From assembly GCA_008632985.1 (NCBI GenBank), contig QPGO01000203.1, positions 1-64,000 on the forward strand: a stretch of DNA of 64,000 bases, written 5' to 3'. Both the position numbers and the translations under genes were made by a program. The DNA comes from Psammoneis japonica. Lineage: Eukaryota. Every line of letters starts with the position of its first letter. Within the stretch, counting starts at the first letter, position 1. Positions 6,791-51,840 of the stretch are shown here, piece by piece. The notes beneath the pieces were generated by a model. The model worked only from the letters and a program-made list of their open reading frames with translations, did not search any database and was not told where the DNA came from.

Positions 6791-7980
6791 TAGGCCGTCG
6801 TGCAGAAAAAATTACCGAGGCGCTGCTGCAGTCAGCACAAGCAGTAGTTGCTCGTAATATTTAGAGACGAGAGCAACCTCGTCTGCCCTTTATTTCGGGA
6901 CTTTCCCAAAAGTGGTAGATTGTAGAGTGCACCATGAACAAGAGTATTCAGTGTTCCGCTCCCATGTGTTGTACCCCCCATGATACTTCTAACATAGTCA
7001 CTCCAAGAGACACTGTATCTCCTTAAGTCGTTCTCCATGTATTGGTGTCCATTTTTTTTTTCGCGCTATCGTCGTCGTCGTCATCCTCAAGTCGACACCG
7101 GCATCACTCTTGCTTTAAGCAAAAAACAACCCGGGTCCTACCCTGGCTAACTCAAAAAGCTTCTTTATTTCTTGTAGAAAACGGAAAAAAGATTAAAGCA
7201 AAACAAGAGGTTGAGAAAACCAAAATATACATGAAATCAACACTCCGTCAAACACCGTGGAGTGATGCACTCACTGAGAATGTGAGAATAAAGAAGCACA
7301 ATGCGGGGGGCAGAGAATGATTTCATTTTTTTACTGCCATGAATTAGGGTTCAGATTGACGATAATAGGTGCAATGGTATCAACGTAAAATCGATAATGC
7401 TCATTTTCGGCGGCGACGGCCATTGTTGTAGATGCTTCCGTGTTGAACGGCAAACGGCCGTTTCCACGTGTCCTACTCGTAATGTCGGGTGCGCAATGTG
7501 ATGCTGTACAAGCGTCTGTGCTCCTGATGAGATTGCACAGCATGTGGCGCATCGCCACCGTAGCTGTGAGCGAGCTAGAGTGAGCGAGCCACTACGTGAA
7601 ACAGGAGTCGCCAGCTAGAACCGCAGGCCTGGCATGTTGACGTCACACGCACATCTTGCACCACAAGATTGTGTGCAAAACCTCTTCTCGCGACGTCATC
7701 ACCATCCACAATTTTGCGCGACGAGCAGAAGGAGTTTTTTGTGGGCGACCATGATGAGTGCGCAACGATTCTGGTGGCAAAGTCCAGTGAGCTCATTGTC
7801 GACGGGACACAGACCTTTTTTCTTTTCAAGTTCAATGGACAGACTGGGCGACAACCAGAATTTGGGTGAAATGATCTCTCAATTTTTTGCCTGCAGCTGC
7901 CATTGGAGTGACAGTGTTCGCCATGTTCTTTTCATGTGCCTTGTGATTCGCGGCCGCAAGGGCAGGAGCTGCCACACCCA

Positions 7981-8395
7981 ATGAGAATCAAAGGGCCATT
8001 GAAGCAGCTCCCTGGGGCAGGACGTGACAAAAAATCAAAGTTCTCGTCCTTCGCCAACCTCAAAAACAAGTGGGTGCCTGTTCATTTGGACACCAGCACA
8101 CTTGCACTTGTTTGTGCTGTTCGGCACCATGAGAAATTCTGTGCTGGGAACTTTGCTCCTTCGCTGCAGGAGTTTCACAAGACGGTGGTGTTTTTGCACT
8201 CGATTCTCAAGTGGGACATCAAGCTGGTTTTTGATGGGGTTCCGCCAAAAGAGAAGGAAGCAGAGCATGCACGTCAGTGTGCTGGTGAGAGTGGGAATGC
8301 TGCTCCCTGGATTCCAGCTCTGTTCATTGCAATGTGGGCCAAAACATGTGATCGACACTGCACTCCTTTTGTGATGGCACTGCTGGAAGTTGCCG
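7981..8395 (+). pseudogene. Decayed XPG/FEN1/EXO1-like PIN nuclease domain, truncated
   Basis: MRIKGPLKQL (cf. MGIKGLL), VHLDTS, LVFDGVPPKEKEAEHAR (XPG-N motif) and PFVMALLEVA (cf. PYVVAPYEAD). Confidence 0.7.
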
Positions 8396-8449
8396 GTGGT
8401 GTTGCCAACACCAAAGAAAAAGGCAAGACAGACCCACTCTGTGGCTCAT

Positions 8450-11112
8450 GAAGATTTGATGAGTGGGTCCGTCATTTTGTTTCATGTGGATCTGGAGCAC
8501 GGGGGTGACCACTGTGGAGTCGTTCAGCTGCCGGTTGTTGCTTGTGATGCTGCGATGAAGTCGACACTGGGTGAGTTTGATGAGCATGCACGACCACCCC
8601 CACATGCTCGTTGGACTGAAGCAACCATGTCCACACATGGCATGCGCCCAAACCAGGCAAGAATGCAGCCCACCTCTCCAGTTGAAGAAGTGTGGAAGCA
8701 GTTTGTGGATTTCGTCAAGAAGCATCTTGACAATGGCAACAAGAAAGGCATCCTTGCCGCGTGGGGTGGGCAGGCATGTGATTGTGAGTGGCTGTTCCGA
8801 ATCACAAAGGATGCCCATCATGGAAAACTGTTCATGCCAAGGTGGTGCCCTTGTTTTTTGTAGATCCAAAGAAAGTCATTGCAGAGCACTTGGGCTGCAA
8901 ATTGAGTGAGAAACACTCCAAGGCAGCTGGGTGTGGATGCGAAGAAATGTGTTGCCATGTGACAGGCAAGAGTGAATTAGAAGGCGCGCACTCTTCCATT
9001 GTTGATGCTCGTGCTCAGTGCAAGATTGTTGAAGACAAACGCTTTTGGACGCACACTGACAAATCAAAATCTGTCATGGCACTTGACGACATGTGGGGCG
9101 TGAAGAAGAAGAAACGAGATGCTCAAGATGCCGAGCTGAAACGAGCTGCGCCAAAGGGTTGGTCTGAAGACAACAATGAAAGCTGGGAAATTCCGCACCA
9201 ATGCAGATGCACTGGTCCAGTGGGAGGACCGCACCATGGACCCACTCAAGCCGTGCTGCACTCCTGCACATCGCTGGCACTGCTCTTCTTGTTCTTTTTC
9301 CCAGCCACATTGCTTGAAACTGTTGCCGCCGAGACAAACCGATGCGGCAATGAAGACTTCATTTGTGAATGCGACGCACCATCAGAAGACCATGGCAATG
9401 GCGATGACAATGAGGCAGGAGAAAACAACGCAGAATCCAATGATGAGGATGATTCTTCCAATGAGAAGAAGAAGAAGAAGAAGAAGCCTCGACTTGTTCC
9501 ATGTGACAAGTCGCACCCTGGTGCTCGACACAGACACAAGGGAAATTGGACTCCTGTTGCGGCTGGGCATGTTTTGGTTTTTCTTGGTGTTCTTTTCCTC
9601 AGGGGTGCAGAGAGGACCCGCTCAGTGTCAGTGTGTTGGTCTGCTCATTGTGGTCAAGGTCGTCCACACGTCCGGAATGCCATGACGAGAGATGCCTTTG
9701 ACCAGCCTCGCACGAAAATGCATTTTGTCAATGGAAACGTTCTCCCGTCTGACAAGAATGACCCACGGTGGTCCCCTTTGCAGAAAATTAATCCCATTGT
9801 CGTTGTGGTGCAGGCTGCTCTTGCTTCGGCATGGACCCTTGGACAGAAATGTTGCGTTGACGAAAGTGTGATTAAACACATGGGTCGAGCCATTACATGG
9901 GTCCAACACATGCCTGCCAAGCCAATTGCGCATGGGATAAAGGTGCATGCTTTGTGTTGCGCATACACAGGCTTTCTCTGTGCCTTCAAGATGTACACTG
10001 GCAAGGAACACACCGAAGACGGTTCACCAAAAGCTGTCATTGATCGGCTGCTGCTTAGCACAGGCATTCAAGTTACTGCAGGGGGAGCTGGACGGATTTT
10101 GCACACAGATAATTTCTACACTTCGATGGAGGTAATGCTGCATCTATACATTACGTACAAGATGTTGATGGTGGGTGCGTTTAGGCTGAGCAAGAAAAAG
10201 TCCCGAACTGCAGCTGACTATCCATACCACAAGCTGTCTGGTCCGGCCCTCAAGAAAGCCAAGCGCGGTTGGACACGACGGGCAGTCAAGCATGTAACGG
10301 ATGCAAGCAAGCGGCTCCTCTACAAAGTGCAGGCAACAGTGTGGAAAGACAAGAAGGAGGTAGGATTCTTACACAATCACATGTTTGGCCCTACAGACCC
10401 CAATCACACAGTTTTGCATCATTCAAGAGAAGCCAAGGGGAGGATAGAGATTTCCAGTCCGGAGATCACCACCGAGTACACCGCCCACATGTCTGGGGTC
10501 GACCACAAAGACAGGGACACCGCCGACTACACCACGTCCATTCGCACGAATCGACATTATTTTCGAATATTCTTTTGGCTCATTGATGGTGTGCTGCATG
10601 CAATGTACGCCATCGTGAAGTTTATGGCTGCCGATCCAAATCATCAGTGGCACAAGTACTTGTCGAAGAACGAAGGTCGGTACAAGTTCCAAATGGACTT
10701 GGCAATAGAGATGATGAGCCGTGGCATCCGAATGGATTGGAATGATACGGCAAACGAAGACTCAAAGCCAAAATGGATGAGGCAGCTTGGATACATTCCG
10801 TGTGATTGCAAAGAATGCTTTTTCTGCAAAGAGGGCATTACGCATGGTATTGATCACCGTTGGAGACGTCGCCCGACTCCCCATGACGCACCCGCTATTC
10901 AGTGTCAGCCGGACCGGGTTCCAGTAACTAAAAATCCTCGACGGTGCAGAGTGTGCTACAGGAATCTGCTTGACATTTCTGATGGCGATATAACAACGGA
11001 CGAGCTTCGAAGCTACTGTCGGCAGACGCGACTTGGGTGCCGAACTTGCGGAGACCACGGTGTGACTATTTGTGAAGGCTGCTGGCCGACCTATAATCAT
11101 GACATTGATTAA
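8450..11112 (+). mobile_element. piggyBac-like transposase with an N-terminal DEDDh 3'-5' exonuclease domain; one frameshift at the T-run ~8854-8860; element termini not found
   Basis: Exonuclease: HVDLEHGG, THGM, AAWGGQACD, GAHSSIVDA. Transposase: VDESVI..GR..VQHMPAKP..HGIKVHALC, TDNFYTS, WKDKKEV, MSGVDHKD, IFFWLID, and a C-terminal Cys-rich domain (CRVC..CRTC..ICEGCW..H). Confidence 0.9.
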
Positions 11113-14059: not shown

Positions 14060-14625
14060 GGAATCTTGGAAATTTTCGATTTTTAAAAATCCATGTGTGA
14101 CTCGCGCTCGTGGATTTTCAGAAATGCAGATTTTAAAAATTCCCGATGTCTTTTTTCGAAAACAGACGATCCTTGTTTCAGAAAATGACGCAATTTCGTA
14201 AATCTCCCCTTTTCATCATTGAAAATGTGCGAATGCCTTGTTCTCTGCACGCTGACTCGAATTGCGGCACCTCGTCAAAGGCGGGCTGCCAGAATCGCCT
14301 CTTGTGCCAGCATGGGGCAGAGCGGGCGGGCGGGAGAGAAATCAGCATTGTCGACAGAGGGACAACAACGGAAAAACAAAGGCTCGCAACGCGGTGAAGC
14401 AATGCTGTTGCTTCGGTGTTTGTTGGTTGTTTGATCTCAAATTGCACAAATGACATGACCGTTGGGAAAGTCAAAATGACTGTCAACAAATTGGCGCGAC
14501 TTTCCATTCTTTAAGAATCCATCAACTGCGACATTTTTAAAAATCAACGTTCTGGGAAATGCGGATTTTTAAAAATGGAGATTTCCGGGAATGCGGATTT
14601 TTAAAAATGGAGATTTCCGAAATTC
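14060..14625. repeat. Cluster of short motifs, probably TE subterminal repeats
   Basis: ATTTTTAAAAAT recurs; ATGCGGATTTTTAAAAATGGAGATTTCCG is tandemly duplicated at ~14559-14619. Confidence 0.6.
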
Positions 14626-14639
14626 CGCGCAACAGATCC

Positions 14640-16790
14640 ACAAAAACTGACATGACGCATTGACACAGTGACACAATCGCGCTGCGGCATCAGTGAGCAT
14701 GCTCAGTCTCATGCCATTCTGATGCACCTCTCACACTCTGCTCAAGCTGCCTTCTTCTGCAGGAATTCCGCAGCCTCCTTCATGGCTGCGTGGAGAGTCT
14801 TGAAGTCATCGCGACTGCCGACGATTGTAAAGAGCTCCAGCCCTCGCGGACTGACCGTGTCAAACTGGTGCAGAGTGAGTTTTGTCTTCTGACAGTTTTC
14901 AGATCCACTCCTGATCTTGCTGATTTCCATTCCTTTCAAAGAAGCACTGTGGAAAGGGAAGATCAACCGTTCCATGTCTTCGTCATCAGGCTGGATGACG
15001 ATGCAGAAGGCTCCAACCTTTGGCTCATGCTCAAAGAATGACGTGCTGTGATCGGCATGAAGAAAGCCTCCACCAGGTGAGTTGACGCTGGTGCGACGGA
15101 CCACCACATCACTGCGTGAACAAACGAAACGACATGTTGGTGTTTCCATCTTGTTCTTGGCTCTTGCTCATCTTTCGTTTGCAGACAGTGCAGATTGCAA
15201 GCAACAGCAGACAGCGAGTTTCTCGTGTTGAAGATTGCCAACGTCACACTGCCTCAAAAAATCAAAGCGCTCATGTGGGAATGACTCTTTCTGCGAAAAG
15301 CAACACCATCACCATCCCGAACCACAAAGTCCCTGGGCGATGCTGTCGCGTAATTTTTTTTGGAGCAAGGGGCATTGACTGTGGATTGCGTCATGTGTCG
15401 AATGCTGTAGATGCCGTGGATGAAGAGGATGGGAGTGACTGTGACGAGACTTCTGACCCCAGTGAATCAGTTGGAGAAGCCAAGGCCAATGAGGTTTCGG
15501 GGGAAGCCGATGACGAGAGCAATGAGAGTGAAGTGGATTGTGGTTTGTCCCAAGATTTTCAGTTCTAACGACGATGAAGAGAGCAACAAGAGTGAATTCG
15601 ATTGTGCCACATTTTGACCCAAGACTTTCTCCATTCTAACAAAATGCGATCCCGGCATGATTGTGTTGTGACCAGCTTGTGCCAACCCGGCATGACAATG
15701 TCGTGACCAGTTTGTTCTTTCTCTGGCCAATGAGTGACTTCTTCTTCCTGTTGGCAACAGACAGTTTCGTTTTTGTCGCCAGTTTCATCACCTTGTCTTC
15801 TTCTGCGGCGTCAGGAAACATTGTCTTGAACTTTCTAAGAACCGACGCAGGCACAATGCTCCCACCGCAGTCCCCAACAATTGCTGCCACTGCTTTTGCG
15901 TGCTCGTGGGAGAGGGCGTTCTCCTGCATTTCAAGCCCAAGATTGTTGAGACGAGCGGCTCTTCCATTCTTCTTTTTTTTTGAACATGCCTGGCTGATGA
16001 AAGACTGAACTTCCGTGAAGCTTGGCAATGTGCAGTCACCTGGATGCGCTCATTTCAGCACGTCAAGCATTGCGGACGGCCCCATCTTCTTGTCCTTGTC
16101 AGTGCTTCCTTGTTGACAGAGGCCAAAATGCCCAACACTTCATCATCAGATGACATGCGGGTCGTCAACGCACTCCAAGTGTCGAAGAATCCACGTGGAA
16201 GAAGGCGTCAAACAAGAGGTCGGATTGAGGAAATGCAAACAGCTGCTGACTCTCACCTGTGCCAGGACTGACCCTGTCTGTCGTGATGTTCTCGTCCCTT
16301 CTTCCTCTGCCTGATCACCATGCACCATGACCTGTCACCAGAACAGACGAACAAAGCATGCAATCATTGACATCAACAGTGTGACAATCAAAATGGCGAC
16401 ACGCAGCGACGGGAAATGGCGCGCCATTGTCTCATGCCGGTGCATTGTTGAGTTACATTGTTGGACAAGATTTCAACCAAAACATGCAACAGATTCCAGC
16501 CACACATCTGCATGGTGACGGTGACGAGTTCCAGTGAAAAGGGGACAAGAGAAGAGTGCATGTGATGCTGCAAGAATGTGCTGCAGCGTGCAGCGTCTGA
16601 GGGAGATGAAACATCACAGTTGCGTTTGATGCGGCACAGGGCTGCCGGCACATGACACATGATGTGATGGCTGTCGTCGTGCATCGCAGTGCAAAGCAAT
16701 TTGAGTGCGTCGTACAGACATCTGCGTTTCTGCATGTGTGATGTAAAAGTCGAATGAGTCATTTTGTCTCACTTTTGCCTTTGCGCGGGC
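14640..16790. other. TpA-depleted hypermutated tract of unidentified origin
   Basis: Very few TA dinucleotides; overlapping ORFs in many frames that are Tyr-free and Cys/His-rich. Confidence 0.8.
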
Positions 16791-21599: not shown

Positions 21600-23500
21600 A
21601 AATTAAGGAACATTTCAACTGATTTGAAATTGAGGAGCAAAATTCTGGGTCACTCGAGTGTTCAGAGTTCACACAGATGAAACAATGTCGGCCGGACTGT
21701 GCAGTGGAGCAGCTCTGATGGAAGACCTCCTCTGGCGACACATGCCTCAACTTTGTTTCTCTTGTCCCCTTGAGTTGAGACAGCCCCTGCAAATGAGTCA
21801 TTGTGCTGTTGCTTTTTTCTGATCATTGCACAAAAAGAACTCAGCATTTGCCCTCCACAACTGAGCCTTTGCAAATGCCGGCACACTCCTGCTGTTGCAG
21901 CTGCGCACCTCGCTTTGAGTCAAAAAGGCGCCAAGTGTGCAAGTCTCAACTGATTGAACAATCCATTTTTGTGCAGAATGTCTGGTTCATGGGGCTGGCT
22001 GCCATTGTGATGCCATGACAGGATGCCACCACCAGATGAGTGGCGGTGCCTCAACTTTGAGATGGCGGCAAAGTGCCTTTGGGAGCATGCCCAAAAATGG
22101 TGTGTCACGATGTTGCCTGCTGTGAAAGCTGCAGACATGTTCCAGCACCAGGCAGGACTCCTTGTGATGACATGGGCCCTCAGAGCTCTGCATGTGAGCT
22201 TTGCAGCTTGTGCGTTGGGCAATGTGAGCGCATGTTTGTCTTTGATCATGTCCAAGAAATGACCGAGTTTGCACAGCGCAGTTGCAACTCTTCACCCTCG
22301 CAATTTTTGAAAACGTGCCAATGCCACTGCACCACTCTGCAGACATTTGAGAGAGGGAATTTGCACAACAAAATGTCAAAAGTTTGTTTGGTGGGTGGCA
22401 AAACAATTGCACCACAAAACAGTGCAAAAAATGCTGCCAAAAAGTCGCTGTTTTTCAAATGGCTTGGGACTTTGCAGCTTTCCTGCACTTCACTTTTGCA
22501 TCATTTTTTGTGGTGCCTCTGAGCACCCACCCCAAAATGCTTGTGAGCATGCCCAGCCTCCCCCAGCCCCAGCAGGGCCACCAGGCCCACAATGTGCAAA
22601 CTGCAATCATCAGCCTTCAAACGCCAATTGTGAGATTTTGTGCCATTGTCACACGCTCAACAAGCTGCTGTTTTTTTTTCCAAAATTGCACTCTTTGTGG
22701 CAGGAGACAAGCTGCGACTTTTCATGAAATGCTCAGCTGGCATTTGACAGGGGGGGGGGCTGTGGACATGCCTCTGCCTTCACCAAGCCAAAGATCACCA
22801 CACAAATGGTCACAAACATCATCCATGCATTCTGTGATGTCTTGCAAATGGACAAAGCCAGCCTCTTCTTTCAGGGTCTGTCATTTTGTCTCTCTTTTCC
22901 CCATCATGCCAGGTGCTGCATCAGCTGGCATGATCAGCCGCTCCTGCTGACAGAGATTTTGGAACCTGCAGTTTGCTGTTTGCTGGACATGTGGATTGTG
23001 GGTTTAGATTCTCCTGCACATGGTGCAAGGAGCATGGTTGATGCAAAATGAACCCAACAAGTGAAAGCCATCGGGTCATTTCTCCCTTCAGAGGTGTGAC
23101 AGTCACCAGCGTGGGGCCCTGCGGTGCAACATGGCTTGTGCGACACCATTGGGTGAGGCTGAATTTGGTGTGGGAATGGGTGCATTCCAGGCAACAATGA
23201 GATTGAAGCTGGGAACCTCCTTGTTTTGGGGTGAATTTTAGAAATTTCAGATGAAAAACTGCCAAAATGAGACAGTGTTTTTCGCGCATGCGTGCAACTC
23301 ATGGAAAAACGTTCAAAAGGCTTGAGCACGAATGCTGAGCTCACCGTGCAAACAACACGACAATGGCCGAAATGCCGTTCGTTGAGCGCAATGTGGGCAA
23401 GGCGGCCTCCAACTTTCTTCACAAGTTTGTTGCCCATGTCAAATGCGACACACTGTGAAAAAAGTTGGAGGCTGCCCCACTCAGTTTTCAAGAACGAATG
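21600..23500. other. TpA-depleted hypermutated tract flanking the gypsy element (unidentified decayed sequence)
   Basis: Almost no TA; strong TG/CA excess; ORFs open in all frames and lacking Tyr. Confidence 0.8.
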
Positions 23501-23527
23501 GCGTTTCGGCCATTGTCGTGTTGTTTG

Positions 23528-23682
23528 TGCAGCACGCCGCCCCAAGATCCATGATTTGCACTTGCAGATGTCTTCTGATGTCGCTCATCCGATGATGCAA
23601 GCAATGAGTCAGATCCATTCTCTAGAAGATCAATGAGTGGTCTAACCACAAAGCTCACTTTTTTCTCGTCAACTGATTGACG
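23528..23682 (+). repeat. 5' LTR
   Basis: Direct repeat of 28750-28904; starts with TG. Confidence 0.9.
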
Positions 23683-26600
23683 TCACACCAGCTCAGTGCA
23701 CAGTGAATTCACTTCACACGTTTTTTCACAATGACTTCCAACGATGCTACGATGCCTTCCTTTGAACTCACCGGACAGTGGGAAACTCTGAAATGCTTCA
23801 AGGGCCCTGCTGAGAAGTTTGAAGTTTGAGACATCCCAAATGACATCCACAGTGGAGCGCACGAAAAGAAAGTGACATCTTTCAGTGGCGAGTGTGGAGA
23901 TGACAGTTGACCCCCATTTCTCATGTGATTTCTTCTTGAGACAGGTGCAGCAGATCTTTGACTGCAAGCCCTGCAAAGCAGGCCCGCCCAAGTTCAGCGT
24001 CTTTTCTGCTTGCCTCGTCGGTGCAGCGAAGACCAACTGGGAGCAAGCACATCAGGAATTTGAAGATCCGGCACTGGAGACAGAAGACATGTTCCAAGCC
24101 ATCCTTGAGACATTCAAGTCATGTCACTTTGAGAGCAACATGCCTTGATGTGACCAGATTGAGCATCTGAAGACCGTCAAGAAACCATCCAGAGCAATGT
24201 GTGAACAGCTCATCTTGGCGACAGATGGCATGACAACTGACCTTCAGCAGTTTCCGCTGGACGTCGACACCAAAGGTGAGGCGCTAGACACGCAGCCCAC
24301 TTTGACAGACAATGATTGTGTCAACATGCTCATCAAGAGCGCACCGTAAGCCTGGCATGACAAACTCATGGCTGACGGCATGAACCCTTGAGAACTTGCC
24401 AAAAAGGACTTGAAAGAGCAATTCCACTGCATGGAAAGGGCGGAGAAGCGCAAGGACAGATGCAACAAGCATTCCAACGATCGCCGTCATGGAAGCGACG
24501 ACCACGACAATGAGAAGAATGACCACAAGGCATCTCACAAGGGAATGTCTGGATGCAAGATTCCCTGGAAACCCAAGTGCTGCAACTTTTGCAAAAAGTC
24601 CAGGCACAATGACCAGGAGTGCAGTCACCCAGGACATCCACATCATGAGAAAGTGTCCTTCAAACGTGATGACCGAGACAAACACGACCGCCGCGATGAG
24701 GATTGGAGTGACCGTTGCCGCAAGCGCAACTGTCACATCTCCGACGACAAATCGGATCGATCATGCTGCTCCTTGAGCGATGAATCCTCAGACTGCAATG
24801 TGACGGACGAGCACGCAAGATCCGCCGTTCTGAGAAACAAAACAGAAAATGTGAGTCCAGCAGCGAACAATCTGATGACTGCTGGTTCAACTGCTTGCAA
24901 GACAAAACAGATCACGTGAAAGTGGAGCGTGGGAATGCCGCTGTCACGAGAATTTTTTTACATCCAATCAGGCCAATTGGCGCCAAAATTGCAAAGAAAA
25001 AGCACAAAACGGCAGCATCAGCAGCAACTGCACTGCCAGAGGACGACTCTGTTGCTGGGTCAAGTGCTCCAACATTGTTGGATTCTGGGAGTTCTGCTTC
25101 CCTGATCCACCAATCTCAAGCACCAAGGAGATTTTGGCAGAAAGTCAAATCTGCCAGTTTCAACGCCAAAACCGGCGAGTTCACATGTCATTGTAGAGTC
25201 GCACATGACATTGCTTTGCCAGAACTGTCAACATCAAAGACCCCCCGATGGTCTTTTTGTGCTGACGAGACCAAGGACAAGACTCATGGCTCAATTCTCG
25301 GAAGCAACTGTCTGGAAGAACTTGAGATTCATTTATCGCATTCATCCAAAACTGTTCAGTGGGGTGATTCATGGGCTCCTGTGCAAAGCCATGATGAAAT
25401 GAAGCCTGGCTCAGAAGCCAAAGAAGCATTCTGGCAGATGCAGTCAGACGAGAACGACATCCACGTGAGCAAAATTTTAAAAGATGCCACTTTGCGCGCG
25501 ACCAAAATCCTGGGTGCTAAATGTGAAAAAGCAGATCTGGACAAGAGAGTTGACGAGTGCTCTGCACTCGATGGAAAACAAAGAAAAAACTGTTGAAAGT
25601 GCCAAAAAGCCATGGGACGCTCTTTGACGGCACTCCACTCAAGTTCGACTGTGAACCAGCCAACTTGCACATGAAACCGGGCAAAGACATGCTGTTTCAC
25701 GTGAAACAAGCATTCAGCGTGCCTCAAATTCACAAGGACACTCTGCCAAAAGAGCTCCAAAGATTGGAATCTGTCGGAGTTCTCAAGAGGAACAACAGCA
25801 GCAGACATGCCCACCCTGCTTTCATTGTCCCCAAGAAAAATGGTGCAGCCCGCTTCATTTCTGACTTCAGAAAATTGAGTGCAAGACTGAGACGCAAACC
25901 ATGTCCACGCCTCCGACAATGCAAGAGCCGCCACAAAACCCACAAGGGTTCAAGCATGCTGCTTCTTTAGACCCAAACATGGGTCGCCATGCTGTCAGGC
26001 TCACACCTCAAGCACAAGAGATGTGTGCTGTTGCCCCGCGGGGGAAGCGCAGCTGTCAATGCCTGCCAATGGGAGCAGCACCGGTGTCAGATTTTTTTCA
26101 ACTGAAAATGATGCAGCTGATGCAAGGAATGGAGGACCTCATTCACACTCACCCAGATGACCTCCTTCTGATGGGCCAGGGCTCCTTTGAAGAGCACCTC
26201 AACCAACTCCAACAAGTCTTGGACCAGCTGCAACAAGCCGGGCTCAAATTCAACACTGCAAGATCAAAATTCTTTGCCGCCGAGATCAAACACCTTGGTT
26301 TCTGGCTGACTGGGGAAGGCACAAAACCTGCAAAAGAGAAAGCAAAAGCAACAGATGAGATCAAGCGACAAGAAACACAAAAAAACTTCACCGATTCATC
26401 GGCACAGTCAATTTTTATCGCAACATGTGGCGATCACGATCACACTCACTCGCACCACTGTCAGAGCTGACATCCAGCAAGAAAAAGAAAAAGCTGAACT
26501 GGCTCCCAACACATGAGAGAGCCTTTCAAGCAGCAAAAGACGTGCTGAAGCAGGACGTTGTGCTTGCGCACCCTGACTTCTCCAAAAAATTCACCACTCA

Positions 26601-27594
26601 TGTCGACGCGAGTGATTTTCAACTCAGCACCATCATGTCCCAAGAGGGCAAGCCGATTGCTTGTCTCAGCAGAAAGCTGAACAAAGCCCAAAGAAACTGT
26701 GCTGCTGCTGAAAGAGAACTGCTCTCCATTGCAGAGTGTCTGCGACAGTGCAGAAACATCTTGTCATGACACGAAATTGAAATTTTTGCAGATCATGTCA
26801 ACCTCACTTACAAAACGGTGTCATCAGTGCGTGTGCATCGCTGGCGCCCATTTGTGGAAGAGTTCGGACCCACCTTGACGTTTGTGAAGGGAGAGGAAAA
26901 TGTTGCGGCCAACGCACTGAGCCGGCTGGACAAGAAGAAACCAGCTGAGACAGTTGAAGGCCTTGATGGCAGCGTGCACCAAAAATCCAAGCAGCCGGAG
27001 CAAACTGCGCAATCTGAGCAGCTCTTTGTCCAAACCCGAACTCAAAAGAAGAGAAAACTGACTGTGAAAGCCAAAGCCCTTGCAGATGAGGCTCTGCCGC
27101 AATCCCAGTCAGCCCACAAATGCAGGCGCCTGGAGAAAAAAGAGGAGACAACTCCCGCTGATGGCTCACCCATCAGCCACAAGACAATCGCAAAATGTCA
27201 ATGGAAAGATGCAAAAACATGTGAGAAGCCAGAAACAGACAGCAATTGCACGGTCAGAAAAGTGGGCGAGAACAACGTCATGTTTTTCAACGGCAACCAA
27301 ATGCCGATGCCGTGACCACTCAGAAAACCAATCGTGGATTGGCGCTGTGTGAATCTCTGCCATCCTGGAACGGGTCAGACAGAAGAAACAATGCGAAGAA
27401 ATTTTACATGGAAGAACACATGCGAAGAAGTACAAGACCGTGTGACACATTGCGGTGAGTGTCAACGGCTCAAGAAAAACACAAAGAAATGTGGCCATCT
27501 TCCTGCCAAAGCAGCAGAACATCATCCATGGTGCAAATTGTGCACAGATCTCATCAGTCCTCACAAAGTGTGGACCATTGATGGCAAAAGACGG

Positions 27595-27973
27595 GCTCCA
27601 GAGCTGGGTGGGACTTTTTGTGACATTGGGCCCGCAGAATTCTACATGCAAGCTCCGCATTATGAGGGTTCAATTGATGGCCATTTTTGTCTTCAACATC
27701 AAATGAACGACCAAGTTTGTGGTGCAATTGTGGCCATTGCCGCTTGACGTTTTTGCAAATGCGCCTGCCCCGCACAATTCTCAAGACATTTGAGAATCGC
27801 GCCACAAAAAAAATGTCAAAAGTTGTTGGACGGATCGCTCAACAAGTGCACCACAAAATGATGCAAAATTTTAGAAAAGTCACGTGCCTTTCCATGTGCG
27901 CGACATGCGGCGCGATCCAAAAAACCATCGATGTCACAGTTCAGCAGTGCGAGGTCCCACCCAGAGCTGGAGC
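27595..27973. mobile_element. MITE inserted in the gypsy integrase
   Basis: Imperfect TIRs GCTCCAG..TGGGTGGGAC / GTCCCACCCA..CTGGAGC. It interrupts the integrase between IDGKR and IKIHELKALTM, and is related to 51452-51840. Confidence 0.8.
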
Positions 27974-28749
27974 GCATCAAAATTCACGAGCTAAAAGCCC
28001 TCACCATGACAGACCCAGCTGCGTCATGGTTCGAAATCAAAGAAATGTCCGATGCTGGTGGCGAGACGGCAGCATTGACAGTCAACCAAGAATGGCTCTG
28101 TCGCTGTCCCTGTCCTTGTCAGATCACTTGTGATCAGGGTGGTGAGTTTGCAGGCCAAGAATTCCAAGAGCTTTTGCAGTCTTGTGGGATCAAAGCAACA
28201 GCAGCTTCTGGCCGCAACCCGCAGGCAAGTGGCATCATTGAGCACACTCACCTTGCTCTGCACAATGTGCTCCGCACATTTGACTTGCAAATGCAGGCGC
28301 TAGATCCAACTGATCCTTGGTCTGGCCATTTGGTCAATGTGGCCCATGCAACAAAAGAAGCACCTGCCACACCACACTCCAAGCCACTCCAGCAGAACTG
28401 GTCTTTGGACGTGATGTGATTTTTGACAGAAAACCCAGCGCCAATTGGGGCCAGATCCGGCGGCGAAAGCAACGTCTGATCAACCTCAACAACAAGCACA
28501 AAAACCAAAAATGAATCGCCCATCAACGCCGAGTGGGCGACTGTGTGCCATGTGAATGACGCTCCGGACACAAGCACGAAGGGCATCGCGACGGCCCGTG
28601 CGATGTCATCGAAGTCTGCTCCAGCGGCGTGGCGCGGATCCAAGCTGGTCGCAGGATCAAAGAATGAGCTTAACACCCATCTCTTTTGCATCCTTGCAAC
28701 TTGCTTGCAAAACCCGCCATTGACCTTGCCATGCCCTTGGGGAAGCGAG

Positions 28750-28904
28750 TGCAGCGCGCCTCCCTAAGATCCACAATTTGCACTTGCAGATGTCTTCTGA
28801 TGTCGCTCATCCGATGATGTAAAAGCGATGAGTCAGATCTGTTCTCTAGAAGATCGATGAGTGGTCTAACCACAAAGCTCACTTTTTCTCATCAACTGAT
28901 TCAC
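28750..28904 (+). repeat. 3' LTR
   Basis: Direct repeat of 23528-23682, preceded by the polypurine tract. Confidence 0.9.
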
Positions 28905-29369
28905 GTTTGCACGGTGAGCGCAGAACGCTTCGGTGTGTTTTTTCCATGTTTGCGTCATAAGTGATTAAAATGTCATTTATTTTTCATGCTTTTTGCAAAT
29001 GCATGTCGAAAACACAAGGGATTTGCCACCCTTGACAGCATGTGGCGAACAATGTGTTCAACGACAACCAGTTTCCGTTGAATGTTCAACAAAATGTTCA
29101 AGTCTTGATTGAAATATAATGCACATGACTGCTCCCGCCACATTTTCAATGACGAAGTTGTGAGCCATTGTCCATCATTGTCCCAATGTAAGTCAAAGTC
29201 CCAATTTTTTTTCTTTTTTCTCATGTCGCACCACGCCGCCCCCAGAGGTGCATAAATCGTCTGTTGTCGTTCGCACACGCGCATTCGCACACTCAGCGCG
29301 CGCACGAACGACAAAACGATGAGGTGGATCACGCTGGTACTTCCGCCTGTCACGATGTGCTGTACCTGA

Positions 29370-45919: not shown

Positions 45920-48900
45920 TGCGATTGTTTATGTATTTGGAAGGGTTGGCAAGAGCGGAGTTGAGAAACAACAATAATAACATCGACAACAACAGAAAGT
46001 CAAGCCACGTCTCGTTTGAAAATGACTGCGCGACGACGTACGTACGACGTTGGAGGGAGAACATGCCATGAATGCGCGCGGAGTCATTGATACCTTTTAG
46101 TCTTCTGAGCCTTTGGAGATTGCTCAGAGCGCGCGCGCACGCACGCACGCACGCAGCAGGGGAGTGTGACGTAAGCGACGAAGTAAAAATGTCGAATTTT
46201 TCATGCCGACTTGTATTGTGACAACGGCGTTGTGCGTTGTGTGTTTTTGCTTGCTGCTGTCCAGCGCGAACCGAGAAAAAGAGAAAGGTGAGGACCACAA
46301 TGAACTTCCTTTTACAGTTTGTTTGTTGCAGCAGTGATCTGTCCTCTCGGCTTTGTCTTTGCTGATGGAGAGGAAATGATTGTGCCCAAAACTCGCCTTC
46401 GGAGCCTTGGGGGCTCATTGAGAACTTGCCCGTCATGCAAAGGGCGCTTGTGTGAAATGTTGTGGTTGACCAAGAGCTTTTTTGAAAGTTTGTTTTGTCA
46501 TCCACCTGACAAATGCCTCAACGACCCAGAATGGACTCTGAACTCCCCGAAGGACTGCGCGGCGTGTGTCTCGTCTTTGAGAATCACAGGGCATGGTCGC
46601 ATGGAGATGAGGAATTTGGAGATGTCTTTGGTGACCCTGCCAGACAAAAACTTTGTGCCAACATTGCCCTTCAGAAAAGTTTTGCGCCAAGATGGATCAT
46701 GAGTGCAAAAGAGCAGACTGCTTGCAAGGAGATCTTTGCCCTTGTGAAAGTCTTGCGTGCGGGAGTGGCTTTGACATTCATGCTTTGGGGGCTTGTTGTG
46801 AAATGCTTGGAAATCTTGAAAATTTGCACCAAGGCCGTCAACTGGGTGATGAAGACATTTTGCATTGAGGGGTGCAAGCCACACAATTTCATGTGCTGCG
46901 AATGTCCGAGCGTGTGCCCTCCAAAGCCTGAGAAGAAAAGGGGTCATTGCAACATTTATGAAGGGATTGCCCAACAGGCCACATTGCTCAAAAGATGCCC
47001 CAAATCAAACCAAATCTGTTGGGAGCCCTGCTTTGAGTTGATGCCAGGAAGTGGCACATGGAAACTGCAGGGTTCAAGTGCGCTGATGCCTGTGAAACCC
47101 ATGTCATGAACAACAGTGGCTGCTTCATTCAACAGTGTCTCCCTCCTCCTGTTTCTCCTCCTGCGCTCTAGAGCAGTTGTTGTGACCAGAGATCTTCTTG
47201 CATGTTGCACAGAAGCATTTAATTTGTCAGGATTGAAGTGACGGAGTTGCAACTGCCCTTCGTTTTAAATCAGTCAGCCCTCATCGCCAAACCAACCCAT
47301 CAGGCAATCTCACAACTCATGCTTGCAAAGCAGTGATTCCTTGATTGACGTGAGGTTGCTGTCATTTTTCTGGTCATGACCAAATTTTGCAGCAATGTGT
47401 GTGTCCTGAAATGCAGCAAGCTCCAAACAGCTTGCCTGACAAACTGTGCTGAGAAAACCACGTGTGAAAAACAGAACGAGTGCAGCACAGTGTGCACTGG
47501 TGTCAAATTGGAGTTGCTCTGAATGCCAAGAGTTGTCATTGAAACTCTGACATTCAAAAGCTGCCAACACAGGAGAGCTTTATTTTGTGGGGCTTTGGGT
47601 TGTCACCCTGTTGCTTGCTCAAAGTTGGTGCTGCAAGACGTCAACTCAATTCCAGCTTTTGCCATCGCCGCAATGTGGAGAACATTTCTGCAGCCCTTGA
47701 TCTCTCATGACAATGTTTTTTCATTTGGTCATGCAAGAGGGAGGGGGGCTTCCATTCAAAGTCAAAGCAAGCCACAAGAAGCAGACCAAAGAGACACACA
47801 CATGCACTCTTTTTCTGCACAGTCAGAATGGTTGCAGTTTTTTGTTTGATGAAAACCAGGCTTCTGACATTTTCTTTCTGTCTCTAGAGAAGGCTCGCTC
47901 ATGGTGGTGACAGTTGGAGTGGAGGCAGTCAATCCTGCAGAGGAAGACTGCAGATGTGTCCAGCTGAAAAGAAAGCTCCCGATGACACACAGGACGAGAG
48001 AACGTGTGAAGCAACATGATGGAGGCACACGCAAGATTCAATCTAGAGCCAAGCTTGTTCAGCTGTGACTTGTTTCCTGGTTGCATCCCCTGCTGCTTGC
48101 ACCTTAACCATGTCCAGTCTCGTGCCGCTGCCAGCATTGTTTTCTTTGCATTTTGCTGGGTGCAGGTGTTGTGTGCAGGAGCCACTGCAACTGTCATTTG
48201 TGTGGCTTTCAGCACTCCTTTCACTTCTTGATGCCATTCTCTCCTCATCAGAATTTGATCTCTTTGATGTTGGCTTGCACCATTTCATGTGAGCTGCCAT
48301 GCATGTTTGGGCATTTCTGTGAACTTGGGCATTTCCTCATGTGCACTTGCCATTGTCACAACACTGCACTTGGACCTGCAAACAATCCACAACCACCACA
48401 ATTTGCAATCATTTGCAAACTCATGTCTTAGACTCCTTGGTTTTGTGTGACAAAATCACAAAGCAGCACTGGTTTCTGCAGGAATGTTGGTGGCCACTCT
48501 GTCCAGGCACGTGATGCACCAGAGGTTCATCAAAAGAGCAAACCTGGGTCCAGCGCACTTTTGCCTTGGGAGGAGAAAACTGTGTGATGAAAAATTTCTA
48601 GTTTTGCAGCCCATTGTTGGTTGCCACAAGTTCCTTTTGAAAGTTGTGAATGAAACAACTCATGTTGCAGCATGGCAACAAGACATGTTCTGAGTTGCAA
48701 AATCATTGCAAAAGGTTCAAGTCTCATTTCAAAAACTCAGCTCAAGAACTGCTGTTTCTCAGTTGTGTGTGTCTTGCTGAAAAAATGTCAGCAATGTGAG
48801 AACTGTTTCTCAATTGTTTGTGTTGCTGACATTTCTCTGATGGTGACAGAGTTGCGCCAACTCCTGTTGACAAGCCGACACACAAGCTGCCCTCCTCCTT

Positions 48901-49190
48901 GGCCATGAGAAGTGGGGCAGTTGGTGCTGGGCCTGTCAAACATGATGAATGAGCAGATTCTCACTCCACAGCTGAAGCATTTTGGCAATGCTGCATCCCA
49001 GTTGATCCTTTTGTCATGGTCAGCTGCCAGAGTTCTTGTCACAGTTGTCAGATCACAGTGGGAGAAAAAGGCAGATGATGAAATTTCTGTGACATCAGTT
49101 TGAGACATGCCCACTTGGCTCCAGCACCAATCTGTGGTCTGCAGGCACTTGCAAAGAGCAGTGCACAATTCAAAAATGAAAAAGACCCCG

Positions 49191-50073
49191 GCATTGTTGT
49201 CCACAGACAGTCTTGTCCAAGACACACAGGACGGTGTTGTGTGGATGACTTGCTTTTTCTGCCACCACCAACAACAATGACAATGAGGGCAATGCACAGT
49301 TGTTTGATGATGACAGCATCTTGACTGAGAATGACAGCCAAAGCAGAAGCAGCAGCCGCCATCAACCTGCAATGCCTTCTGAGAAACAAACAATGCTGCA
49401 ACAAGAACGCAACACAGCAACAACAATGTCAGTTGGTCCATTCATGATGACAACTTGTTGAATGAACCAAAAACAGTCACCAACAAAAAAGGAAATTAAA
49501 AATGTTCCAGATGACTTGACCAGACAATTGACCACATGTGCACAATCCCTTCTGCTGGTGCTGTTGTTGATGAGTGTCTGACTTGAGGCAGCAAGGGGTG
49601 CAGAACACACCTGAGCATGCTGAAAAACTCCTTCAATGCTGTCAGCAATGACCACAGCTGCAAGCACACACACTGGAAATGGAGTTGCTGGGCATGGAAT
49701 GTGTTGTGGTGCTGTTGGACAAAATGATGTGAAGGTTCTTGCAGAAAAACAAGATGTTTTGTGGTGCTTGGAATTGCCAGACTTGATTGTCACTCCGCGG
49801 GCCAACCAAACCTCACTGCCAGATGTGTTGGCTGTCCCCCAATGGGTCATGATTTGATGATTCAGCCACAACACATGGTGACAACCAAGGAGGCCACATT
49901 GTGTTGATTTGCAGTTCTTTTGGCCAAGAAAAGTGTGAGGTGAGCCTGTGAGTTGGCAACTCTCTGTTGCCCAATGCCCCCATTGTGATGGCTTGGCTGC
50001 ACTTGGTGATTGACTTTATGGTGTCGTGACTCCATCACTTTAACACAGGCAACAAGATGTGGAGCTCGCGGAG
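49191..50073 (+). pseudogene. Hypermutated copy of the 5' half of gene 54690-56684
   Basis: Colinear with ~54690-55562, sharing e.g. CAAAGCAGAAGCAGCAG, GACTTGAC.AGACAATTGACC and GATTTGATGATTCAGCCACAA. Confidence 0.93.
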
Positions 50074-51451
50074 CCTTTTTGACTCACTTGAAAAGGTGGC
50101 AAGACAGTCTTTTCAACTCACTTAAAAAGGTTCTTATTTTGCAACCTTTTTGACTCACTTGAAAAGGCAGCAAGACAAACTTTTCAACTGGTGGGACAGT
50201 CTCTGCTGGGCCCATCAAACATGATGGGGGTGCATCATTTGCACAGTCAAGCAAGCAAGCAAATTCTCCCTTGTGGAGCAGCAACGACACACTGTGTTCT
50301 CCTTGTTTTGTCATGGACAAGTTGGCTGCTGCCCAGCACACATGCATGAGAAGTTCAAGCGCTTTGTCACCCAGTGGTGTGGCATGAGTGACAGACGGGG
50401 TTTTGTTGGAAAACTGGGTCATGCAGGCAGGCAACGGCAGGGGTGTTGGAGATGGAGCAGCAAGCTGAGCCTTGAGTTTGGTTGTGTGTCTTGCAAGTTG
50501 GTTGGCCAGAGATTTTGCAACCGCAAGACTCAGGCTTTGGAAACCCCACTGGGATGGTGGTGCAAAGGCATGACAAGGATTGTGGCCAAAGCAGGAGGAA
50601 GGAACTTTTTGCCATGCAGCTGAGGCAGCAGGGAAAAGTCTGGAAGGAGACATTTTTGCACACATGTGTGCATCCCAAGCAGCTGCATGCAGAAAGGATG
50701 ATGCGACACTTGTCAGATGCACAGCTCTGCACTTGGTTTGTCCTCAGGCACCTGCGGTTGTGTCACCCCAGCTGCTGCTCTTGGGTTGTGCACCACAAAC
50801 AGCAGCCCACACAAGACAAAGCAGCACGAGATTTGCAGTTGTCCAATGTTGGAACTTTCCACATTGTTTTCATGGGGGCATTGCCAATGTTGGTCGTGGT
50901 GCTGAGAAATGTTTTTGGTTGCTGACACTTCTCAGATGGTGACTCAGATTTGCATCAACTCATCCTGTCCAGCATGACAAACAAGCAGACCTCATCTCTG
51001 GTCATGAGAAATGGGGTTCCAAGTCCACCAGGCATGATGAAAGCACACTCTTCACTCAGCCGTGCAACCAAGTGGGTTCTCCTTCCATTGTTGAAGCAGG
51101 GCAACAGGGCCTGATGCGTTGTCATTGACCCAGTTTGTCTCATCATGCAATTGTTTTGTCATGGTGCCAAACAGGAGAAAAGCAGATGACAAAGATTTTT
51201 GCAACATTGCTGTGGCGTCTCCCCTCAATTGCAGGGCGGCAGTTGGACCCAAAAACAACACTGGGCTGTGTTGTGGCATGCTCACATTCTGATGTTGAGA
51301 TCAGACAAAATGGGGTGGATTGTGCAACAGCTCCAATCAACTGGCTTGCTGAGGTCACCCTGGTCCAGTGTGAGAAAAGAGGGCACTTGCGGTGGTGGGT
51401 GGGGACATTCCCAGCCTGCCAAAACAAGGCACCGAACTGCGTGGTTTGATG

Positions 51452-51840
51452 CATTCCAGACGCAGGTGGGAATCCGTGTGACATTGGGCCCGCAGAATTC
51501 TGCGTGCGAGCTCTGCAGCAAAATTGTGCGGCAATTAGAATGTCAATGATCGCCAACAGAATGTGAGGCAATTTTGCGAACGCACAAACTTGCCCATGAT
51601 TGAAGCACATCATTTTTTGCTTGGCCAGCTGCATTCTTCAGACATTGAAGAATGTGACTGGCACGTTGTTGTTTCCACAAATTCGCCATGTAAAACGTCT
51701 GGGGCTTCGCAAAACAGCGAGTCTGGACAATTTTTTTTTAAATGTCACATGTAGAAATAAACGTGCGAAACATGCAACGGATGGTGAAAATTGTTTGTGT
51801 CACACGTCAGTGCTGCGAGCTCCCACCTGGGGCTGGAACG
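51452..51840. mobile_element. MITE related to 27595-27973
   Basis: TIRs CATTCCAG..CAGGTGGGA / TCCCACCTG..CTGGAACG; shared internal GTGACATTGGGCCCGCAGAATTCT. Confidence 0.8.

Follow-up and report, generated by a model that had tools for sequence, protein, structure and literature searches.

The window, i.e. the whole 64-kb stretch of diatom DNA analysed here, was scanned for the observed/expected ratio (o/e) of TA in sliding 1-kb windows. TA occurs 1932 times in it, at a median spacing of 17 bp. Outside ~7.5-10.0, ~14.0-16.5, ~21.5-28.5 and ~46.5-52.0 kb, where TA o/e fell to 0.00-0.10, it ranged from 0.45 to 0.85; the longest TA gaps measured 1401 bp (21604 to 23005 and 50135 to 51536) and 1245 bp (7616 to 8861). 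Four virtually TA-free tracts, not assigned to a strand, were delimited: T1 (7617..9788; 2 TA in 2172 bp, TA o/e 0.02, CG o/e 0.58), T2 (14200..16712; 11 TA in 2513 bp, TA o/e 0.07, CG o/e 0.78), T3 (21605..28977; 29 TA in 7373 bp, TA o/e 0.06, CG o/e 0.58) and T4 (46314..52340; 21 TA in 6027 bp, TA o/e 0.05, CG o/e 0.32). T3 had been flagged in the original prediction for a near-absence of TA over ~7.3 kb, which the count bears out against a TA o/e of 0.59 outside. The same signature had been claimed for three further tracts, all of which are real; the second begins nearer 14.2 than 14.6 kb.

Together, the tracts cover 18.1 of 64 kb and hold 63 TA, compared to about 1865-1869 in the remaining 45.9 kb. 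Pooled TA o/e was 0.05 in the tracts and 0.59 in the rest of the window, with CG o/e at 0.52 vs 0.98, TG o/e at 1.74 vs 1.19 and CA o/e at 1.59 vs 1.18; all other dinucleotides shifted by at most 16%. T3 itself contains 260 CG, 694 TG (o/e 1.76) and 789 CA (o/e 1.48). Between tracts, CG o/e ranges from 0.32 to 0.78, while TA o/e is always 0.02-0.07. The tracts end a few hundred bases before the adjoining genes, which are spared.

Besides unrecognisable DNA, three kinds of content were made out in the tracts: a gypsy retrotransposon, the 5'-terminal third of a piggyBac transposase gene and a duplicate of the 5' part of a host gene. The degenerate Ty3/gypsy element (23527..28906, forward strand) has broken frames and carries Pfam domains and LTR-like repeats. 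The domains, all on the forward strand, are RVP (in ORF 24784-25593), RVT_1 (in 25865-26467), RT_RNaseH_2 (in 26359-26766), Integrase_H2C2 (in 27316-27744) and rve (in 27862-28416). In a tblastn search of the whole window with 150 gypsy relatives, no match was obtained outside 23933-28664. The left LTR-like repeat lies at 23527..23683 (forward); the right one (28749..28906, forward) is 90.6% identical to it, or 96.9% with transitions masked, and T3 ends within ~100 bp of the right LTR end.

A piggyBac-like transposase ORF, open over 774 codons (8788..11109, forward; Pfam DDE_Tnp_1_7, residues 166-600, E 1.5e-34), is crossed by the right border of T1 at ~9.8 kb. Codons 1-333, inside T1, encode 0% Tyr and 1.5% Ile, and codons 334-774 encode 4.1% Tyr and 6.1% Ile. 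The ends of this element are undefined, because a search for terminal inverted repeats and a target-site duplication gave no convincing pair. Within the tracts, only two stretches can be recognised as transposable elements (TEs): the gypsy DNA at 23.5-28.9 kb and, for piggyBac, part of 7.6-9.8 kb. When 142 ORFs of ≥ 75 aa from the tracts and their surroundings were searched against Pfam, only the five gypsy domains came up, besides one sub-threshold match to OpgC_C that was taken as chance. T2 has no Pfam domain in ORFs ≥ 75 aa and T4 none above the curated cut-off; both, like the left part of T3 (21605..23526, no strand assigned; 21.6-23.5 kb), stay unclassified after this search. The latter has a palindrome at 23342-23534 and a segment (22133-22429) resembling the gypsy integrase region 27589-27868 (83% with transitions masked).

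The direct polarity of the substitutions comes from one paralog pair. Within T4, positions 49196..50073 (forward) duplicate, in hypermutated form, the first ~880 bp found in a gene at 54.7 kb, at 74% identity and 89.8% with transitions masked. The unmutated paralog (54695..55562, forward), which served as the reference, forms the beginning of a gene of 664 codons (54690-56684) with normal composition, ~5 kb away. This gene has 25 distant, unnamed homologs; a protein atlas gave no usable match. The original prediction had described the process as targeted to TEs, which holds for the gypsy element and part of the piggyBac element and is too narrow as a general term, as T4 carries a copy of the 5' part of a neighbouring gene.

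At the 32 TA of the reference, the TA-free copy kept 1 TA and has TG at 17 and CA at 8. At the 57 CG, 2 were kept, 33 became TG and 13 became CA, so that the predicted loss of CpG to TpG/CpA on both strands is found at 46/57 sites. The remaining dinucleotides were kept at 45-81%. Considered by base, A>G occurred at 17/33 TpA vs 15/208 other positions and C>T at 34/57 CpG vs 11/141. Transitions at ApT were mildly increased in the copy (T>C 14/47 vs 12/115; A>G 9/52 vs 6/156).

The outcomes in the copy are skewed towards TG over CA, at 17:8 for TA-derived and 33:13 for CG-derived changes. A strand bias shared by both kinds of change was considered and rejected, since the TA-derived skew is accounted for by an excess of YTAY sites.

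For the gypsy element, codons were compared to the consensus of 150 relatives, with an acetyl-CoA transporter gene as control. The element kept 198/276 conserved codons; the changed ones comprise 20 of TA type, 16 of CG type, 9 transitions outside these two types, 17 transversions and 16 with more than one change. The control kept 344/373, with 0 TA-type and 2 CG-type changes (Fisher's test, p = 2e-8 for TA type and 9e-5 for CG type), and the 16 vs 2 CG-type changes again agree with the predicted CpG loss. All examples of lost Tyr codons named beforehand were found exactly: HPDD at 26150-26161 (CAC CCA GAT GAC), KPCP at 25896-25907 and QRNCAAAERE at 26689-26718 (..AAC TGT GCT GCT GCT GAA..), for which the consensus of 32 relatives reads QRNYTTTEKE. 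At 4/13 conserved Tyr codons the element has CGC, i.e. TA>CG with two hits per site. A strictly TpA-specific enzyme does not explain these double hits.

Over 160 bp, 13 differences separate the two LTRs. Among the 9 clear substitutions, 7 lie at CG- or TA-derived sites, two of which read TG in one copy and CA in the other. Therefore, each LTR was mutated independently after insertion. Taken together with the tract border inside the piggyBac ORF, this means that the process must work in place, on DNA. The tracts are thus kilobase-scale domains of a diatom nuclear genome in which DNA already in the chromosome gained transitions at TpA and CpG: TpA was converted to TpG/CpA to near exhaustion and CpG to TpG/CpA to a varying extent.

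A native absence of TA, a possibility raised in the original prediction, was not seen in relatives: among 79 related gypsy loci from metagenomes, 0 had a TA o/e below 0.50 (range 0.50-1.33). Several of these loci are CpG-poor (o/e down to 0.02), yet normal in TA. Judged from such sequence comparisons, the tract composition is the result of mutation and not native. The paralog pair, the LTR divergence, the conserved codons compared to the control gene and the 79 relatives all support the claim of a locus-restricted A:T>G:C mutator at TpA.

In 6/150 gypsy relatives, from the public sources NCBI, ENA, JGI and Logan, the Tyr content is 0%, against a median of 3.75%, and columns in which Tyr is conserved read Cys or His. 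Comparison of P0277, which has 24 Tyr, to its Tyr-free sibling P0148 gave Y>C 7, Y>H 2, T>A 5, R>H 3 and R>C 3 times; two Tyr-free siblings have Cys and His swapped between them at 5 sites. The tract sequence was also compared to Logan k-mer contigs from one public run, X1, with a word depth of ~50-60; this run is of unrecorded technology and was probably made from the same sample. The tract is reproduced by contigs that reach 315 kb in length, e.g. a 1712-nt contig over 21144-22855 with 3 differences. In contigs matching at ~99.5%, the 27 listed in-tract differences are 16 of CpG type, 5 of TpA type and 6 others; the 21 at CpG or TpA sites fit an action in place and would hint, indirectly, at a high rate of new mutation. 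An error of the assembler is ruled out by these contigs with more certainty than a base-calling bias common to the whole platform.

The 63 surviving TA are found in the contexts YTAR (37), mixed (25) and RTAY (1), and this pattern is present in all four tracts. The rest of the window gives an expectation of 10.2, 34.6 and 18.2, respectively (p = 5e-20); against the background of the 79 gypsy loci, p = 9e-11. In the paralog pair, YTAY sites gave TG and CA at 9:1 and RTAY sites at 6:6, and the single YTAR site is the one TA retained. From these contexts, the TpA process favours T-A-Y, which equals R-T-A on the opposite strand. The substrates given in a review table are 5'UAG for ADAR and 5'ACG for TadA/ADAT2 (PMC10661471). 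With a preferred 3' pyrimidine, TadA-like enzymes therefore fit better than ADAR. Runs of the same strand choice numbered 30, compared to 30.6 expected, which rules out kataegis-like strand-coordinated clusters. The two strands of the palindromic TA site behave independently and, as long strand runs are absent, hits accumulate site by site.

The whole is probably explained by an in-place TpA transition process confined to domains of the diatom genome, plus loss of CpG. The former would be of the same kind as the TpA hypermutation of integrated viral DNA in Bigelowiella natans. CpG loss would come from another process that is slower, in which 5-methylcytosine is deaminated where silent DNA carries CG methylation. 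For the TpA step, the leading candidate is enzymatic conversion of adenine to hypoxanthine in DNA, through a deaminase, TadA/ADAT-like or of another kind, that is brought to silent chromatin; our confidence in adenine deamination by a recruited deaminase is slightly less than even. The effect would be the permanent inactivation of mobile or foreign DNA. A defence against mobile DNA is something we infer, because a recognisable TE or viral origin is absent from 3/5 tract components. More tentative still, and to be taken with some doubt, is an enzyme-driven defence common to diatoms and chlorarachniophytes, in which silent, mobile or foreign chromatin is recognised and adenine in its double-stranded DNA is deaminated at T-A-Y.

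An adenine deaminase and a thymine modification predict an identical sequence outcome. Thymine chemistry acting in the same in-place domains is an unlikely source. A TET/JBP-type oxygenase would oxidise T at TpA in silent chromatin, and the resulting 5-hydroxymethyl- or 5-formyl-uracil would mispair with G, causing T>C on either strand. The predicted pattern, TA>CA on one strand and TA>TG via the other, is the one observed, and R-T-A is the same motif as T-A-Y. Furthermore, 5-formyluracil favours A:T>G:C, and 5-hydroxymethyluracil of dinoflagellates is enriched at TpA. Against a thymine route, the authors working on B. natans propose adenine deamination, also without proof (bioRxiv 10.64898/2026.01.13.699255).

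The original prediction had also offered Pol-eta-like error-prone repair, which would have to be drawn to heterochromatin again and again and which fits poorly. The process is local and TA belongs to the WA hotspot, of which it is the stronger half. However, AA is spared in the paralog copy (AA>AG 7/67, near background; A>G outside TpA 15/208). Many of the errors of Pol-eta at A:T are transversions, whereas 25/31 changed TA are pure transitions to TG/CA and 6 are other changes. As the depletion is, in addition, nearly complete and dependent on the 3' base, we consider such repair very unlikely.

Editing before integration, i.e. A-to-I editing of TE transcripts by an ADAR-like enzyme with a 5' U preference followed by reverse transcription, is largely refuted and has hardly any probability left. 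The best-defined target is indeed a retrotransposon, and A>G with a 5' T preference is ADAR-like. However, the LTRs show TG versus CA at the same sites, a DNA transposon is mutated by half with the border in its ORF, the gene-fragment copy and unclassified DNA are mutated as well, and near-identical X1 contigs still vary at TpA and CpG sites. CpG loss would be left unexplained, and the preferred 3' base is a pyrimidine, whereas ADAR is listed with G in the review table (PMC10661471).

An artefact of base-calling or polishing at modified bases, or natively TA-poor DNA (foreign origin or selection against TA), is similarly improbable: although X1 probably derives from this sample too and is of unrecorded platform, its deep k-mer contigs match the tract, Tyr-free relatives with Cys/His at Tyr columns exist in four other public sources, the TG/CA split depends on context, conserved residues and frames are destroyed, 0/79 relatives are TA-poor, and the preprint gives the same spectrum for Illumina mutation-accumulation lines of B. 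natans (bioRxiv 10.64898/2026.01.13.699255).

For the preferred reading, an in-place TpA process with additional CpG loss, the mechanism is constrained to one that works in place on DNA, site by site, independently on both strands, at T-A-Y and separably from CpG decay; tract borders need not coincide with transposon ends. To our knowledge, the 2026 preprint on B. natans was the first to show a cellular organism directing A:T>G:C mutation to selected regions of its own chromosomes. Diatoms are among the ocean's main groups of primary producers and are transformable, which makes the route to the enzyme tractable, with candidates rankable by T-A-Y specificity. Repeat annotation in diatoms is affected, as Tyr-free, stop-poor pseudo-ORFs will be called genes; public databases already contain proteins of this kind. 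If the shared defence proves true, it would erase every Tyr codon and most TAA/TAG stops, and a natural chromatin-targeted DNA adenine editor would be widespread in marine algae; such an editor would mirror RIP and be nature's equivalent of the engineered adenine base editors. A natural DNA adenine deaminase would also be of interest to base-editing work.

Fungal RIP, known from ascomycetes, is likewise an irreversible, local transition mutagenesis of repeated or mobile DNA with a dinucleotide signature. In RIP, C>T at CpA creates TpA and both duplicate copies are mutated, whereas here TpA is destroyed, CpA is gained and the duplicate at 54.7 kb is untouched and of normal composition; the direction is thus the reverse of RIP, as predicted. 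CpG decay by 5-methylcytosine deamination is known for CG-methylated transposons of vertebrates, plants and some fungi. It matches the CG>TG/CA changes in the same tracts and covers the CpG half only; CpG-decayed gypsy relatives retain normal TA, unlike the tracts. ADAR and TadA-derived base editors share A>G via inosine and a 5' T/U neighbour. ADAR is metazoan and acts on dsRNA, and adenine base editors are engineered and need single-stranded DNA; we know of no established natural DNA adenine deaminase targeted to chromatin.

The original prediction had called the process undescribed, which no longer stands: TpA>TpG/CpA hypermutation was measured in B. natans (bioRxiv 10.64898/2026.01.13.699255). 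This preprint alone was found to describe the signature, and no description in diatoms was found in the literature searched. In B. natans, 230/231 mutations in two viral inserts of mutation-accumulation lines were A>G or T>C, and every one of these lay at TpA; such de novo mutation runs at a rate orders of magnitude above that of the genome. In addition, 124 clusters across the genome are poor in TpA, rich in CpA+TpG and enriched for RT and DDE domains (bioRxiv 10.64898/2026.01.13.699255). Integrated NCLDV and virophage DNA is hit in regions of tens of kb or less, and Mettrop et al. suggest an ADAT2-like deaminase as the candidate enzyme (bioRxiv 10.64898/2026.01.13.699255). Viral inserts are the targets there, as opposed to an LTR retrotransposon, piggyBac and a gene-fragment copy here, and TpA o/e is 0.45 in the NCLDV region compared to 0.02-0.07, near saturation, in the tracts. 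The CpG half has no counterpart, because the B. natans regions show no C>T excess, whereas 46/57 CG became TG/CA here. The T-A-Y preference was found here, and the words CpG, trinucleotide and diatom do not occur in the preprint. Both systems share TpA>TpG/CpA on both strands in discrete non-host or mobile regions with neighbouring genes spared. The same signature, run to completion, is now seen in a diatom, a stramenopile and hence on a different supergroup branch from B. natans, a rhizarian chlorarachniophyte.

The TA observed/expected ratio (o/e) was 0.00-0.10 in four blocks versus 0.45-0.85 elsewhere (1-kb sliding windows). Tract limits were placed by the spacing of consecutive TA dinucleotides, the gap having a median of 17 bp across the window and reaching 1401, 1401 and 1245 bp within tracts. 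The tracts were T1 at 7617-9788 (CG o/e 0.58), T2 at 14200-16712 (0.78), T3 at 21605-28977 (0.58) and T4 at 46314-52340 (0.32). T3 is the tract flagged by the original prediction, and the TA depletion claimed for it was confirmed (TA o/e within 0.02-0.07 versus 0.59 outside the tracts). T1-T4 total 18,085 bp with 63 TA; the remaining 45,915 bp contain 1865-1869. Large o/e shifts between tracts and outside were restricted to four of the 16 dinucleotides: TA (0.05 vs. 0.59), CG (0.52 vs. 0.98), TG (1.74 vs. 1.19) and CA (1.59 vs. 1.18). The GC dinucleotide was slightly raised (1.22 vs. 1.05), as is expected if TAC becomes TGC. Tract edges lie a few hundred bases from ORFs (21327 vs. 21440-21604; 45928 vs. 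46313). Two repeat regions were noted outside the tracts. A TA-rich tandem array at the window start (296-976; six units of ~107-114 bp, 65-100% identical) is not TA-depleted, hence not all repeats are targets. A cluster of diverged direct repeats (32420-33600; units of ~190-520 bp, 70-77% identical) has a lowered CG o/e (0.70-0.73) at normal TA o/e (0.67-0.77), which is CpG loss without TpA loss in the same window.

For domain content, 142 ORFs of ≥75 aa plus 10 long ORFs were searched against Pfam. A Ty3/gypsy domain series (RVP, RVT_1, RT_RNaseH_2, Integrase_H2C2, rve) was found on the plus strand at 24.8-28.4 kb, together with an LTR-like pair of 157-158 bp (23527-23683 and 28749-28906). 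A piggyBac-like frame of 774 codons is located at 8788-11109 (DDE_Tnp_1_7, E 1.5e-34), so that a DNA transposon is among the targets besides a retroelement. No recognisable domain was detected among ORFs ≥75 aa in T2, T4 or 21.6-23.5 kb, and 49196-50073 in T4 duplicates the first ~880 bp of a gene starting at ~54690, which has normal composition and 25 distant homologs. Targeting of transposable elements is therefore established only in part, for the gypsy and piggyBac elements. Immediately upstream of the left LTR, a 193-bp near-perfect palindrome (23342-23534) matches its reverse complement at 76% identity, or at 89% with transitions masked. The diatom host was corroborated: for the acetyl-CoA transporter ORF on the minus strand (44117-45928), the best relatives bearing a name are those of Nitzschia inconspicua (64%), Cylindrotheca closterium (62%) and Thalassiosira species (57-58%), the named relatives of the gypsy lineage (Epithemia, Thalassiosira exigua, Cyclotella meneghiniana) are all diatoms, and the long intron-free ORFs are consistent with this.

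Four independent lines of evidence indicate that the tract composition is the result of mutation and is not native. The tract copy 49196-50073 was compared with its normal-composition paralog at 54695-55562. Of the 32 TA of the normal copy, 1 was kept in the tract copy, 17 became TG and 8 CA; of the 57 CG, 2 were kept, 33 became TG and 13 CA. Other dinucleotides were retained at 45-81%, the low values overlapping TA or CG. A>G changes affected 17/33 positions at TpA and 15/208 elsewhere, T>C 9/32 and 26/162; C>T changes affected 34/57 positions at CpG and 11/141 elsewhere, G>A 15/58 and 13/129. Identity of the pair rose from 74% to 89.8% once transitions were masked.

Conserved codons of the gypsy element were checked against a consensus built from 150 relatives in a library of 1.84 billion proteins, using a transporter gene as control. 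Among 276 conserved gypsy codons, 198 were kept, and 20 TA-type, 16 CG-type, 9 other transitions, 17 transversions and 16 multiple changes were counted; the 373 control codons gave 344, 0, 2, 4, 12 and 11, respectively (Fisher test: TA-type, p = 2e-8; CG-type, p = 9e-5). This test is blind to most synonymous changes and was therefore left out of the strand-bias analysis. All three protein examples of the original prediction were exact, including QRNCAAAERE (CAA AGA AAC TGT GCT GCT GCT GAA AGA GAA, 26689-26718), where 32 relatives have the consensus QRNYTTTEKE. In the gypsy coding region (24976-28664), 4/13 family-conserved Tyr codons are now CGC (Arg); both bases of one TA have changed there, thus a strictly TpA-specific single hit is insufficient. 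The gypsy reading frames are broken and Tyr is absent, which is consistent with decay rather than adaptation. The best 79 related metagenome loci had TA o/e of 0.50-1.33, none being below 0.50, and many were CpG-poor; since the pattern scan favours intact copies, they show the unmutated lineage, not the frequency of mutated copies.

The same signature was present in relatives. Tyr was absent from 6/150 gypsy relatives (one of 699 aa) and made up 0.5% of one more; the median was 3.75%. At seven Tyr-consensus columns, the Tyr-poor relatives carry Cys or His (e.g., CCCCCCC, CCHHC). The Tyr-free records stem from NCBI, ENA, JGI/IMG and Logan and may include the window's own species. One of the Tyr-free relatives, P0148, has normal siblings. 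Compared with one of these, P0277 (24 Tyr, 76% identity), P0148 shows Tyr replaced by Cys (7), His (2) or Arg (1), Arg by His (3) or Cys (3), Thr by Ala (5) and Ile by Val (4). Relative to P0148, its Tyr-free sibling P0273 has Cys for His or His for Cys at 5 sites, which again indicates independent hits.

The mutation came after insertion and acted on DNA in place. The two LTRs of a retroelement are identical at insertion. Here, they show 13 differences in 160 bp, and 7/9 clear substitutions are CA/CG, CA/TA or TG/CA alternatives; the two TG-versus-CA pairs imply that an ancestral CG or TA was hit separately in each LTR. The T1 border falls inside the piggyBac frame and is spanned by the Pfam domain: Tyr and Ile make up 0% and 1.5% of codons 1-333 but 4.1% and 6.1% of codons 334-774. 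Consequently, tract edges need not coincide with element ends. This frame is open over all 774 codons despite its hypermutated first third. With TAA and TAG erased, TGA is the sole remaining stop and TA-free DNA yields long spurious ORFs, from which gene callers will derive Tyr-free proteins; such proteins are already in public sets.

The 63 surviving TA comprise 37 YTAR (TTAA 14, CTAA/TTAG 15, CTAG 8), 25 mixed and 1 RTAY, whereas the remainder of the window predicts 10.2, 34.6 and 18.2 (p = 5e-20). The bias persisted against a background of the 79 gypsy loci (p = 9e-11), and it was the same in all four tracts. Per strand, an A before a pyrimidine (T-A-Y) is readily hit and an A before a purine poorly. 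In the paralog pair, YTAY sites, which have T-A-Y on the top strand alone, gave TG 9 and CA 1; RTAY sites, with T-A-Y on both strands, gave 6:6, and the sole YTAR site is the one surviving TA. Strand-coordinated runs were not found among the mutated sites (30 runs vs. 30.6 expected), which argues for independent events rather than long single-strand episodes. CG-derived changes had a 33:13 strand bias (TG:CA). TA o/e is 0.02-0.07 in all tracts, whereas CG o/e ranges from 0.32 to 0.78; since, in addition, CpG-poor relatives retain TA, we read TA loss and CG loss as separate processes with a common target domain. In the mutated paralog copy, T>C affected 14/47 T in A-T-[CGT] and 12/115 of the remaining non-TpA T; for A>G, the figures were 9/52 in [ACG]-A-T and 6/156 otherwise. 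AT o/e was 0.85 in tracts and 0.92 outside. ApT may be a weak secondary target.

Among the alternatives, a sequencing error was weighed using the public run X1, probably from the same sample, which contains 79% of sampled words from 20500-30000 at a word depth of about 50-60 over T3. X1 records over T3 (1712, 410, 583, 870, 301, 271 and 443 nt) had 3, 4, 3, 5, 3, 0 and 1 differences, and a 951-nt contig across the neighbouring gene had none. As the k-mer contigs reproduce T3, an assembler or polishing slip is excluded. A noisy-read base-calling bias is very unlikely given contigs of up to 315 kb in the k=31 assembly, though the X1 platform is not on record and its independence not proven. Within T3, the listed differences between long X1 contigs and the window fall almost exclusively on these two dinucleotides: among 27 listed, besides 146 further ones, 16 were of CpG type (8 gains and 8 losses), 5 of TpA type and 6 other. 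Judging by their halved depth, these contigs may be the other haplotype; if so, TpA and CpG would both have been still mutating after the allele split. In the gypsy integrase region (27474-28107), two bins have summed X1 contig depths of 38,643 and 85,239 (~60 nearby), and many contigs branch or skip (joints 27542>27978 and 27802>27931). Loose-end consensus sequences are normal in TA and CG there, which suggests a short segment common to a very abundant, unmutated repeat family.

A Pol-eta-like process was rejected because AA is not a target. ADAR-type editing is contradicted by the LTR test, the DNA transposon target and the 3' preference, the motifs tabulated in a review being 5'UAG for ADAR and 5'ACG for TadA/ADAT2 (PMC10661471). 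RIP was rejected on its opposite direction and on the untouched second copy (54.7 kb). The core interpretation, that a local A:T>G:C mutator works at TpA in place and is accompanied by CpG decay, is supported by the paralog pair, the conserved codons, the LTR pair and the piggyBac border.

The original prediction had considered this undescribed, but TpA hypermutation has already been measured in Bigelowiella natans, according to a 2026 preprint (bioRxiv 10.64898/2026.01.13.699255). In mutation-accumulation lines, 231/302 nuclear mutations lay in integrated NCLDV and virophage sequences; 230/231 were A>G or T>C, every one of those 230 at TpA. The rate was about 6e-7 per site and generation, and the effect appeared in only some lines. 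The B. natans genome has 124 TpA-poor, CpA+TpG-rich clusters enriched in RT and DDE domains, and the authors propose an ADAT2-like deaminase. A term search of the preprint text gave no mention of diatoms, CpG or wider sequence context, and the open-access literature yielded no account of the phenomenon from diatoms or any other stramenopile. The phenomenon thus has a precedent but is, as far as found, new for diatoms. In both organisms, the core is the same, i.e. local A:T>G:C change at TpA, to which the P. japonica tracts add the T-A-Y rule, the proof of action in place and the uncoupling from CpG decay.
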